Shown here: one piece after another, positions 5,734 through 15,863 of the stretch
How positions within the stretch are numbered: the stretch's first letter is position 1
How the letters are laid out: every line of letters starts with the position of its first letter
IMG/VR virus record: IMGVR_UViG_3300035676_000001
Length of the DNA: 64,000 nucleotides
Direction: 5' to 3' (one strand)
DNA from: a virus
Lineage: Duplodnaviria > Caudoviricetes
The notes under the pieces: model-generated
Seen by the model: the letters and a program-made list of their open reading frames with translations, nothing else
Database searches by the model: none
Told to the model about the DNA's origin: nothing
Program-made: the position numbers and the translations under genes

Positions 5734-5979
5734 TTATTTTTTAATTCTATTACAAATGTCCGACATTATTGACTTTTCGTTTGCAATAATGTAGTTAAGA
5801 CCATTCTTTCTAATCTTAATATATTTATTCTTTAACAAATCTGATTTATTGGATTGAATTTCCTTATCAAGTGCAAAGTAAAAATACTTGATAAAATCAT
5901 TGAAAACATCTTTTGGTCTTGACTTTTTGGTTGTAAAAATATCAAGAACATTATTAAGGAATGCTTGAAGGTCTTTCAT
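5734..5979 (-). CDS. Hypothetical protein
   Basis: ORF track; ATGA coupling to upstream gene. Confidence 0.7.
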   Translation of the reverse strand: MKDLQAFLNNVLDIFTTKKSRPKDVFNDFIKYFYFALDKEIQSNKSDLLKNKYIKIRKNGLNYIIANEKSIMSDICNRIKK

Positions 5980-7109
5980 ATCAAAAACATTCCAGGTTGT
6001 GCTTCCAAATAATTTCTTGGATAAAATCTGTACATTTTTCCTGCTGCAGTAGTTGAACTTGCAACTTCCATTTTATATCGTATCTGAATAATCAAATTAC
6101 TATTTCCAGATAATTTTGTTCCATCAGAATTTGAACGATAGATTTCAATTTTTGGGTCTCCCGATGCATTTATTCTAGCATTATATCTAGCGTTTGCAAG
6201 AATATCCCTAAACTGACGGTCGGCAACTCTTGTTTTGACTCTACCATCTCCAGTAAATTTAACAAGTTCGGTATTAACATTTCTAGAAAGACCGTAGATA
6301 ATGTAGTCAGCAAACTTTACTTTGGTATCAGTTCTATCTGGGGTATCTAATCCTTCGTTTAACTTTTTAGCGGCATAAGCATAAACAAGTCTTGCTGCCT
6401 TTTTAAGATATTCACCACCTCCAGTTTCTTTTGCGTTATCTCTAGAGGCATATTTTTTTGTGAATACTTCTTTATCAAAAAATTCATCAATAAAGTTCTG
6501 ATAATTATTAGCAACTGGGGAAACATCTAATCCCATTTCACTAAAGATATTCAAAAATTTATCAAATCCCTGACCAGATACTTGGTGAAATTGCTCACCA
6601 CCATCAACTTTTAATGAGTAATCAATATTCCTAAATCTTTTATCAGGATTTGTTGGAGAATTAACTTCTATCTTAACATCCGCTTTTGTTCCTTTTTGGT
6701 CTTCTGTTCCAGCAGCAGTTACTCGAATAAAATCTTCACGAGCATTGATAGAAAGACCTCTTGCTTGTGCATTAAGTCTACTATGCGAATTTACAAAGGA
6801 TACTGCGCCATTTTTTAAATCAGAAACTTTTGCCCAATTTGTTCTATCAGACAAAAAATCTTGTGCCTTTTTAGGAACGGATACAGATACGGACACTGTA
6901 TCAATTACAGCACTACCAACATCATTAACTTGCTTAACATATCCCTTCTTCATCATTTCCGTCAATACGGTATCAACATCCGAACCAGTAACTGTCGGTA
7001 GAGTCTTAGAAGATTTTGTTTTTGCTCTTTTTACAAATCTAGCGGCAACAGCAGCAGCAAAAAAAACTTCAAACAAATCACCTCTATTAGCTGATATTTT
7101 TTCCGCCAT
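5976..7109 (-). CDS. Hypothetical protein, putative PD-(D/E)XK nuclease
   Basis: NRGDLFE ... KADV ... YSLK pattern; CTAAATA late promoter at 7124-7130. Confidence 0.55.
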   Translation of the reverse strand: MAEKISANRGDLFEVFFAAAVAARFVKRAKTKSSKTLPTVTGSDVDTVLTEMMKKGYVKQVNDVGSAVIDTVSVSVSVPKKAQDFLSDRTNWAKVSDLKNGAVSFVNSHSRLNAQARGLSINAREDFIRVTAAGTEDQKGTKADVKIEVNSPTNPDKRFRNIDYSLKVDGGEQFHQVSGQGFDKFLNIFSEMGLDVSPVANNYQNFIDEFFDKEVFTKKYASRDNAKETGGGEYLKKAARLVYAYAAKKLNEGLDTPDRTDTKVKFADYIIYGLSRNVNTELVKFTGDGRVKTRVADRQFRDILANARYNARINASGDPKIEIYRSNSDGTKLSGNSNLIIQIRYKMEVASSTTAAGKMYRFYPRNYLEAQPGMFLI

Positions 7110-7130
7110 AAGACTTTTTGAAGTATTTAG

Positions 7131-7155
7131 TGCCCAAAAGAGGACTTGAACCTAT
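7131..7155 (-). pseudogene. 3' stub of a disrupted tRNA (T-arm, acceptor 3' strand, discriminator A)
   Basis: AGG-TTCAAGT-CCT-CT-TTTGGGC-A; TTTGGGC pairs with the 5' stub GCCCAAA at 7741-7747. Confidence 0.8.
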
Positions 7156-7163
7156 ATCGACAA

Positions 7164-7246
7164 TGCTCCAGAGAAGATTTGAACTTCCACGCTTTTTAAG
7201 GCGGCGGATTCTAAGTCCGCTGTGTCTACCGTTCCACCACTGGAGC
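7164..7246 (-). tRNA. trnL: tRNA-Leu(TAG)
   Basis: Acceptor GCTCCAG/CTGGAGC-A, anticodon arm GCGGA-CTTAGAA-TCCGC, long variable arm, T-loop TTCAAAT; CCA not encoded. Confidence 0.93.
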
Positions 7247-7690
7247 TAAACAATTTCTATTTGAGAATGTATTAGTTTGTGTATGACAATTAGGACATAA
7301 TAATCTTAAGTTGTCGGGTCTGTTATCATATGGTTGACCGTTAATATGGTCAACTTGTAATCTTAATGGTTTTCCATTCCAAGTAGAAGGAATGCCACAT
7401 TCAAAACAAGTATTACCTATTTCTTCTATTAATAATCTATATAGAATTTCACGCTTACAAGATTTACCTTTTAAAGAAGTATATTCTAAAAGTGTTTTCC
7501 ATTTATTATATCCACCATATTGCCTAATTTTATTAGTATAATCTGGTTTGTAATCGGGAATCCATTTTTTATATCTTGCTCGTAAAGTATCTGGTTTACA
7601 ATTTAATTCTAAACATAATTGAGTTGGTGATACTCCAGACAATAAAGATTCTATTATGTATTCTTTTTTGTCGTCAAGGTCTTTTCTCAT
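7226..7690 (-). CDS. HNH homing endonuclease (154 aa)
   Basis: CFEC...LQVDHING...DN...NLRLLCPNCH; start re-called at 7690 just downstream of a late promoter; stop lies inside tRNA-Leu. Confidence 0.88.
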   Translation of the reverse strand: MRKDLDDKKEYIIESLLSGVSPTQLCLELNCKPDTLRARYKKWIPDYKPDYTNKIRQYGGYNKWKTLLEYTSLKGKSCKREILYRLLIEEIGNTCFECGIPSTWNGKPLRLQVDHINGQPYDNRPDNLRLLCPNCHTQTNTFSNRNCLAPVVER

Positions 7691-7734
7691 AATTGGTAGA
7701 CACGCTGTATTATTTATACAAAATACTACTAATT
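7691..7734 (-). promoter_or_regulatory. Late promoter TATAAATA (7711-7718) in loop of hairpin abutting HNH start codon
   Basis: AATTAGTAG ... CTACCAATT arms (8/9 paired) directly before ATG. Confidence 0.7.
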
Positions 7735-7747
7735 TTACCATTTGGGC
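7726..7747 (-). pseudogene. 5' stub of disrupted Leu-type tRNA (acceptor 5' strand, decayed D-arm)
   Basis: GCCCAAA-TG-GTAAAATTAGTAG begins 4 nt after tRNA-Ala and resembles a Leu-type tRNA 5' end. Confidence 0.72.
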
Positions 7748-7751
7748 AAAG

Positions 7752-7824
7752 TGGAGAATAGCGGACTCGAACCGCTGACATCCTGCTTGCAAAGCAGGCG
7801 CTCTACCAACTGAGCTAATTCCCC
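7752..7824 (-). tRNA. trnA: tRNA-Ala(TGC)
   Basis: GGGGAATTAGCTCAGTTGGTAGAGCGCCTGCTTTGCAAGCAGGATGTCAGCGGTTCGAGTCCGCTATTCTCCA canonical cloverleaf. Confidence 0.97.
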
Positions 7825-7847
7825 GAAAACCCCGGAGGGTTATTTGT

Positions 7848-8024
7848 TCATTCTACTGCAGAACCAATCTTTTCGTCAAGGTCTGCAATTACATTGCGAA
7901 TATCAGCAACACGAGGAGGAACACTCAATTCATCATAAGTGTATCCTTTTTGTGCATCAAATAGAACTTGACGAACTGCTGCTGCAGCACGAATATCGAT
8001 TTTTACAGATACAGATTTAGCCAT
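7848..8024 (-). CDS. 58-aa hypothetical protein (not in ORF track)
   Basis: MAKSVSVKIDIRAAAAVRQVLFDAQKGYTYDELSVPPRVADIRNVIADLDEKIGSAVE; TGATG coupling to mazG. Confidence 0.75.
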   Translation of the reverse strand: MAKSVSVKIDIRAAAAVRQVLFDAQKGYTYDELSVPPRVADIRNVIADLDEKIGSAVE

Positions 8025-15352: not shown

Positions 15353-15766
15353 TTATTTTTCAAGTGTGGTTTTTACTACACTATTCTTAACAGGTCTTCC
15401 AAATGTTCCGGGAGAAAACTTCATACCTTTATTCCAAGCAGGTTTGCCCCTCATAGACATACTAGTTTTTTCTCTCGATGCTTTACTTCTTTTTGATCCA
15501 GAAGTACCTTCTCCACCATCTGTCTTATTAATCAATACACCACCACTATCTTTTTTCCCCCAAAATCTTATGAGTTCCACTTCCAAAGATAATGCTTCTT
15601 GTTCCGTTAAATTTTCTTTTATTCTTACTATTCTATCTTTATCAGGAGGTCGTTGAGCCAAACCCAACTTTCTTTTGTTTGTATCTCTAAATCCAGAACC
15701 TTTCCCAATATAATAAGGAGAATATCTATCTTCACGCAAATAAGCGTAAACGTAATACTTTTCCAT
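15353..15766 (-). CDS. GIY-YIG (Seg-like) homing endonuclease with NUMOD3 motif
   Basis: YVYAY...YYIGKG..R...E.ELI...LIN; RSKASREKTSMSMRGKPAWNKG. Confidence 0.85.
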   Translation of the reverse strand: MEKYYVYAYLREDRYSPYYIGKGSGFRDTNKRKLGLAQRPPDKDRIVRIKENLTEQEALSLEVELIRFWGKKDSGGVLINKTDGGEGTSGSKRSKASREKTSMSMRGKPAWNKGMKFSPGTFGRPVKNSVVKTTLEK

Positions 15767-15767
15767 C

Positions 15768-15853
15768 TGCTTTGTTTGTGGTTATAGTTATTTATACAAG
15801 AAAAGGGGCATTTCTGCCCCAAATCTCTTTGCTTGAATAACCACAAACAAGCA
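15768..15853 (-). promoter_or_regulatory. Long hairpin over the GIY-YIG translation start region; loop holds a terminator (about 15798-15820) and late promoter TATAAATA (15789-15796)
   Basis: Arms TGCTTGTTTGTGGTTAT / ATAACCACAAACAAAGCA (one bulge), ending 1 nt before ATG. Confidence 0.75.
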
Positions 15854-15863
15854 CTATTATTTA

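Follow-up and report, generated by a model that had tools for sequence, protein, structure and literature searches.

An HNH endonuclease gene in a split tRNA-Leu gene of a T4-like cyanophage: a leader antisense to the tRNA D-arm and a hairpin around a late promoter box

A split tRNA-Leu gene

The 64-kb stretch of DNA analyzed here (64,000 nucleotides; hereafter, the window) belongs to a T4-like cyanomyovirus whose closest isolate, Synechococcus phage S-SRM01, is ~81% identical to it over half of the window's first 20 kb. On the minus strand, to which all features described below belong, the genes for gp41 helicase and MazG are followed by a small ORF, tRNA-Ala, the 5' stub of a tRNA-Leu gene with a hairpin, an HNH endonuclease ORF, tRNA-Leu(TAG), a 377-aa ORF and a cytidyltransferase gene. 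A candidate sigma-70-like promoter (TTGACG-18-TAGAAT, 7850..7879; 10/12 in a consensus scan) lies upstream of tRNA-Ala(TGC) (7751..7824; ARAGORN; Rfam tRNA, 73.6 bits). The 22-nt 5' stub (7726..7747) consists of the acceptor strand GCCCAAA and a decayed D-arm, and its last 9 nt, AATTAGTAG (7734-7726), which belong to the D-loop part, make up the hairpin's outer 5' arm. A T4-type late promoter box, TATAAATA (7711..7718), is found in the apical part, 20 nt 5' of the ATG. The start codon itself (7690-7688) is directly abutted by a 17-mer (7691..7707) that is antisense to positions 14-30 of tRNA-Leu and includes the outer 3' arm of the hairpin, CTACCAATT (7699-7691). The HNH ORF (154 aa, 7226..7690) leads into the intact resident tRNA-Leu(TAG), which we denote type b (7164..7246; ARAGORN; Rfam, 56.8 bits), followed by an 11-nt spacer (7153..7163) and the 3' stub of the split tRNA-Leu, comprising the T-arm and the acceptor 3' strand (7131..7152). 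The acceptor strands of the 5' and 3' stubs are complementary at 7/7 positions, and an Rfam search over 7050-7900 detected the two tRNAs and nothing else.

A pattern search for the junction of tRNA-Ala and the stub retrieved 27 viral contigs, and in about 17 of them tRNA-Ala is directly followed by an intact tRNA-Leu(TAG). L087, which belongs to these, combines the intact tRNA-Leu with the same downstream flank as in the window and with an upstream flank that is 93.8% identical over 1.25 kb, a level equal to that of the HNH-bearing contigs; it represents an uninterrupted allele from the phage's own population. The window is identical to this allele through ...GCCCAAATGG and then diverges, with exact identity returning at the T-arm (7152-7131), where 17-mers match the uninterrupted allele exactly; within the stub, identity extends up to ...AAATGG and is followed by 4 transitions in 12 nt. 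The sequence between the two points of identity comprises the hairpin, the HNH gene, a divergent but complete tRNA-Leu(TAG) and 11 nt. By comparison with this naive allele, the locus is confirmed as a split tRNA-Leu gene. In another contig, L108, the same tRNA-Ala/tRNA-Leu start, TGCCCAAGTGG (~1096-1130), is followed by unrelated sequence without a tRNA, which may mean that the tRNA gene was interrupted here a second time or that the contig is chimeric. The slot just 3' of the tRNA-Leu locus (window 5976-7109, minus strand) is variable among the window, L087 and L003: where the window has its 377-aa ORF, which matches a PHROG without an assigned function, L087 and L003 have other genes, and homology is back near 5980.

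The HNH protein

The product of the 154-aa ORF matches HNH domains in Pfam (HNH, 1.5e-6; also HNH_3) and PHROG (HNH endonuclease, 1e-26), and the invariant D-H...N...C-P-N-C-H core is retained across nine relatives. The closest named relative is HegA (F-TflIV) of T5 and BF23, to which the window protein is ~35-36% identical across 95% of its length. In a structure model, a helical N-terminal part precedes the HNH core; the N-terminal domain has no match in Pfam and no sequence match in PDB, and a Foldseek search with the model gave weak matches to HNH cores only. An in-frame ATG further upstream, at 7741, was rejected as the start because the relatives share ATGAGAAA... and diverge upstream of it.

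The last six codons and the TAG stop of the ORF are located inside the resident tRNA-Leu (7226-7246), so an mRNA without a stop codon would result from cleavage by RNase P; in the close relatives L014-L016, the stop falls exactly at the tRNA 5' end. The HNH gene is polymorphic in its presence at homologous loci, being absent from L087 and present in the window, and likewise absent from the tRNA arrays of L235, L150 and L181 and present in that of L008. With a nuclease domain and this pattern of presence and absence, the gene appears to be a free-standing homing endonuclease gene.

A module that carries its own tRNA-Leu

Full-length relatives of the HNH protein (72-100% identity) are encoded at 15 viral and 17 metagenomic loci. 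In each of the relatives checked, a hairpin leader of this kind lies before the gene and a tRNA-Leu(TAG), in most cases nearly identical to that of the window, immediately after it, although the contexts of this module differ and are mostly large tRNA arrays. The HNH-free allele in these arrays is a tRNA-Leu(TAG) of another type, which we call type c, and the three HNH-free arrays named above share both the left and the right flank with L008. In the HNH-bearing array allele, type c is kept only in its 5' part, up to the D-arm; the promoter loop, the antisense arm, the HNH gene and the type b tRNA-Leu stand in place of the rest. The divergent tRNA-Leu(TAG) carried by the element is, by all appearances, a replacement for the destroyed tRNA. 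That it always accompanies the gene suggests that the nuclease would cut the HNH-free allele and spare its own genome.

Judging from these comparisons, the module, consisting of the stub, the hairpin, the HNH gene and its own tRNA-Leu, predates the insertion in the window and was transplanted here from tRNA arrays; the 5' arm in the window either came with the module or arose by recombination within the shared D-arm. The 11-nt spacer matches the array flank CTTGACAATCA at about 7/10 positions with one gap and may, as a weak indication, be a remnant of the flank 3' of the module in the arrays. The sequence-only reading had the repressing arm recruited from the invaded tRNA. This does not hold for the present insertion, because the module recurs in other contexts and its arms come from the type c tRNA-Leu that it replaced there, but at the level of the family the arm is indeed a remnant of an invaded tRNA. 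Together, the nuclease and the replacement tRNA make up an unusual mobile unit, which in tRNA arrays takes the place of a presumably sensitive tRNA-Leu allele and which has also moved into a paralogous tRNA-Leu at another locus.

Two further observations concern the neighborhood of the module. In a comparison of L003 and L005 with the window, identical HNH modules adjoin two different tRNA-Ala alleles, which suggests recombination close to the module. Two module-bearing phage contigs (L015, 1077-1345; L121, 1995-2260) contain a cyanobacterial-type permuted tmRNA (Rfam cyano_tmRNA, 137 bits) right after tRNA-Ala.

The leader is an inverted segment of tRNA-Leu

The reverse complement of the 17-mer (7707-7691) corresponds to the D-loop, the 3' strand of the D-stem and the start of the anticodon stem of tRNA-Leu. 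It agrees with type c tRNA-Leu, as found in intact, HNH-free genes of phage tRNA arrays, at 16/17 positions and with the uninterrupted allele L087 at 15/17. In a scan of both strands of the 64-kb window, this was the sole 17-mer with at most one mismatch to type c positions 14-30, and shuffled windows yielded ~0.4 matches even when two mismatches were allowed. The claim made from the sequence, that the 17 nt before the ATG are antisense to a tRNA D-arm, is thereby borne out, including its test set in advance, namely, that the ancestral tRNA should match the inverted 17-mer; the reported match to the resident tRNA stands as well, as a 9-nt exact match between the complement of the 17-mer and the resident tRNA-Leu, GGTAGACAC (7230-7222).

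Across the family, the layout without gaps is 17 nt of sense tRNA (positions 14-30), TATAAATA plus 3 nt, 17 nt of antisense tRNA and the ATG. The antisense copy matches the tRNA at 12-16 of 17 positions in most variants; the inner half of the sense copy has drifted to A/T, with 11-12 of 17 positions kept in L014, L016 and L120, and other variants have a 1-nt deletion in the sense copy. Together, the layout and the similarities of the copies are the signature of an inverted duplication of a tRNA segment around a promoter box. On this reading, the arms are an inverted duplication of tRNA-Leu positions 14-30 in which the sense copy is the stub of the destroyed tRNA-Leu. The 24-nt stub is intact in L113 and L119 and shortened in other lineages; positions 15-22 (ATTGGTAG) are retained in 80-100% of the variants and the remainder in 20-40%. 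Decay of the stub apparently spares the D-loop part alone, that is, the remnant seems to have been selectively kept where it pairs.

A complementarity of this kind raises the prospect of antisense pairing between the leader and tRNA-Leu, be it the resident pre-tRNA-Leu in cis or phage or host tRNA-Leu or their halves in trans, which would couple translation of the nuclease to tRNA maturation. An 11-bp duplex with one bulge can form with the resident D-arm (-18.9 kcal/mol, with small two-dimensional opening costs), and the complementarity to naive-type D-arms is longer still. However, the complementarity follows automatically from the origin of the arm, the D-loop of a folded tRNA is held in tertiary contacts that fall outside the duplex energy calculation, and such pairing, if it alone mattered, would make the 5' stub arm dispensable, yet this arm is selectively kept. 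We consider this explanation highly improbable. As for the pairing in trans to tRNA-Leu or tRNA halves that had been put forward from the sequence, we found nothing in its favor beyond the complementarity, which, because the arm derives from tRNA-Leu, is no independent support. A composite version, in which the 17-nt leader pairs with the D-arm of co-transcribed pre-tRNA-Leu or of naive or host tRNA-Leu and perhaps also serves as a DNA decoy of the homing site, has to be regarded as very unlikely; if true, synthesis of the nuclease would be tied both to the maturation of tRNA and to how much of the enzyme is present.

A conserved hairpin around the promoter box

In the window, the outer 3' arm pairs with AATTAGTAG, and TATAAATA lies between the arms. 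An 81-nt region containing the hairpin folds at -12.4 kcal/mol (z = -1.22; 24 of 200 shuffles fold as well), and the hairpin alone, which contains one uncompensated A·C mismatch, at -9.1 kcal/mol. The fold of the window copy by itself is no better than that of shuffled sequences, and the reality of the hairpin therefore rests on 19 related leaders. All 19 distinct leader variants, which come from varied contexts and from genes for proteins with 72-100% identity, are predicted to form a stem whose end lies 0-2 nt from the ATG. The predicted consensus structure is a 7-bp core stem that is paired in all but a few cells of the comparison, and the 9-bp stem is paired at 88.9%, as against 17-55% when one side is slid. 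Double changes occur at four pairs, for example, AACTGG/CCAGTT in L120 and GGTAA/TTACC in L117, and each of the 18 one-sided changes that counted as paired gives a G·U wobble. The covariation is modest, with 16 of 500 shuffles attaining the observed score, the more so as kinship of the sequences inflates such counts.

The box TATAAATA is invariant and lies 20-21 nt 5' of the ATG in 17 of the 19 variants, whereas the flanking columns vary. Three S-TIM5-like variants keep the hairpin and have no TATAAATA in its loop; another type of promoter is plausible here, or the stem does something else. Phages of the S-TIM5 type are not known to be T4-like in their transcription. The promoter-in-loop hairpin proposed from the window sequence is, accordingly, real and kept across the family, although the fold of the window copy alone would not have established it.

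The layout recurs in distant tRNA-associated HNH relatives whose arm sequences are unrelated: a tRNA stub is followed by a hairpin that has (N)TAAATA in its loop and a GGAG(G) Shine-Dalgarno sequence in its 3' arm, and the ORF runs into the next tRNA. These genes adjoin tRNA-Val and other tRNAs, and many of the ORFs overlap the next tRNA by 9-20 nt. In five leaders of tRNA-Val-associated HNH genes (L018, L049, L019, L055 and L073), the arms are built on GTAGAC/GTCTAC, a core shared with the arms in the window; the hairpin may predate the Leu-specific family.

Conceivably, the inverted repeat could be a neutral scar, a by-product of the insertion or repair event, with fold-back synthesis where the anticodon stem was broken, and with no present function. 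Its geometry, with 17 nt in sense, an 11-nt center and an inverted copy of 17 nt, and the weakness of the window copy would suit such an origin. Against this, pairing, box and spacing have persisted despite divergence of the protein to 72% identity and decay of the rest of the stub, compensatory changes are seen in L117 and L120, and the distant relatives have the same layout with different arm sequences. A scar without function appears quite unlikely to us.

A late promoter and a possible timing switch

Nine of the ten TATAAATA boxes on the minus strand of the window are located 19-35 nt 5' of ORF starts, including those of baseplate wedge, tail sheath and scaffold genes; in the window, the box thus behaves as a late promoter. 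The sequence NATAAATA has been described as the late promoter of cyanomyoviruses (PMC2984593). By the T4 rule, late transcription would start near 7705, and the predicted leader of the late mRNA would comprise nearly the whole 17-mer. No terminator-like site was found on the minus strand between the sigma-70-like promoter and the HNH gene, which, together with that promoter, makes a read-through RNA carrying the 5' arm plausible. In public RNA runs, which are stored as contigs and do not resolve the ends of transcripts, the share of the sampled words that was present did not exceed 0.12.

Opening the start region in the window is predicted to cost 6.5 kcal/mol in the long RNA and 3.4 kcal/mol in the late RNA, a small difference (3.1 kcal/mol); in every box-bearing variant, the cost is greater in the long than in the late RNA, by 1.4-16.7 kcal/mol. 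There is no Shine-Dalgarno sequence in the window leader and hence none sequestered in the stem, so occlusion close to the start codon is the only possible mode of repression. As a measure of specificity, we also tried the number of base pairs enclosing late-promoter boxes; in this AT-rich window, it did not separate the nuclease genes from other late genes, because weak enclosing pairs also surround other late promoters in the window.

We think it probable that the hairpin is a timing switch of the I-TevI/SegB type for this free-standing HNH homing endonuclease gene. Read-through RNA from the promoter upstream of tRNA-Ala would carry both arms, and the stem, reaching to position -1, would partly close the start region, with little nuclease being made. 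In the late phase of infection, RNA would start at ~7705 from TATAAATA, the gp55-type late promoter between the arms, and this transcript, with a leader of ~15 nt and without the 5' arm, would be open for translation. We favor this explanation because stem, box and spacing are conserved, the 5' arm is selectively kept, the opening costs differ in the expected direction, the box is that of late genes, a second ORF of the window (at 15766) has a much stronger hairpin with the box in its loop, distant relatives share the layout, and there is precedent in known systems. The placement of the late promoter between the arms means that, given the predicted start, late RNA would lack the 5' arm. What speaks against a timing switch is the weak hairpin of the window with its A·C mismatch, the lack of a Shine-Dalgarno sequence, the modest covariation, the S-TIM5-like exceptions and the weak enclosing pairs at other late promoters.

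The main rival, or else an additional function, is a mimic of the homing site that acts as a DNA operator: the nuclease would bind the 17-mer, and perhaps the sense stub, at its own late promoter and repress transcription. The close match of the 17-mer to HNH-free tRNA-Leu (16/17) and its location at ~+1 to +15 of the predicted late transcript would suit an operator, as would the greater similarity to the tRNA of the 3' arm (12-16/17 in most variants) compared with the 5' arm and the position of the element junction, which falls in the part of the tRNA that the 17-mer represents. The operator of I-TevI, a 15/20 mimic of its homing site, overlaps a late promoter (PMC2988022). However, the one-sided changes in the arms are compatible with G·U pairs, a pattern more in line with pairing of RNA than with recognition of DNA sequence, and in the L008 group the 3' arm has drifted to 4-11/17 relative to the tRNA and still pairs with the 5' arm. 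We regard an operator as unlikely, if well within consideration; it could coexist with the RNA hairpin.

A further alternative is that the stem-loop protects or marks the 5' end of the HNH mRNA that is excised by tRNA processing, as a stabilizer or processing signal and not as a translational gate. In several arrays, the hairpin begins 1-3 nt after the 3' end of the upstream tRNA, and for segB and the F-Tfl genes of T5, control through transcript processing has been proposed (PMC2330249). In the window, however, ~16 nt precede the stem, and RNAs started at the conserved loop promoter would not contain it. There is, in our estimate, very little chance that this is the role of the hairpin.

Comparison with known systems

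Control by a hairpin combined with a late promoter is established for I-TevI and has been described for I-TevII, I-TevIII, segB and Aeh1 mobE (PMC2988022, PMC2330249). As in the timing switch that we favor, late RNA for I-TevI, the nuclease of the td intron, lacks the inhibitory 5' arm, and a target-like sequence is found at the promoter, where I-TevI binds the operator mentioned above (PMC2988022). I-TevI is an intron-encoded GIY-YIG enzyme whose hairpin hides a consensus Shine-Dalgarno sequence and for which control has been shown experimentally; the window leader has no Shine-Dalgarno sequence, its arms are copies of the target gene, and its control is suggested by sequence.

The segB gene of T4 is likewise a nuclease gene in a phage tRNA cluster that is absent from otherwise homologous relatives (PMC2330249). 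Its start lies in a hairpin, its product recognizes a tRNA motif, and maturation of tRNA-Arg cuts the stop codon from the ORF (PMC2330249), much as the end of the window ORF would be cut off by maturation of the next tRNA. The two differ in several respects. Unlike the window protein, SegB is a GIY-YIG enzyme, and it has been shown to recognize a conserved motif in the T-arm, whereas in the window it is the insertion site of the module that lies in a tRNA gene, which makes a tRNA target of the nuclease presumptive. The segB hairpin has not been reported to be tRNA-derived, and segB neither splits a tRNA nor carries a replacement copy.

HNH genes of the F-Tfl group also reside in the tRNA cluster of T5 (PMC2330249). 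Among them, hegA, the closest named relative, directly follows tRNA genes and encodes a longer HNH protein (227 aa vs 154 aa in the window); the hegA leader contains no comparable stub or hairpin, and T5 lacks T4-type late promoters, unlike the window phage. Aeh1 mobE, like the window gene, is a free-standing HNH gene with a hairpin and a late promoter (PMC2988022); it is located between nrd genes, with no link to tRNA, and its arms are not target-derived. The window module is new in degree, not in kind, through three features: arms copied from the target tRNA, selective retention of the stub and a replacement tRNA that comes with the nuclease.

If the timing switch is real, the device known from T4 extends to T4-like cyanophages and to an HNH family related to T5 hegA. 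The leader would then also point to one way in which such a device can arise: duplication of the target gene in inverted orientation around a promoter box and retention of the tRNA remnant only where it pairs. The combination of a tRNA stub, a promoter-in-loop hairpin and an ORF running into a tRNA should also be an aid to the annotation of phage tRNA clusters.

Elsewhere in the window, a 137-aa ORF (15766-15356), which has no Pfam match and PHROG matches without known function, and for which a GIY-YIG call was not confirmed, is preceded by a strong hairpin (15755-15860, minus strand; -36.7 kcal/mol, z = -5.8) that ends 5 nt before the ATG and contains TATAAATA and a GC-rich inner stem in its loop.
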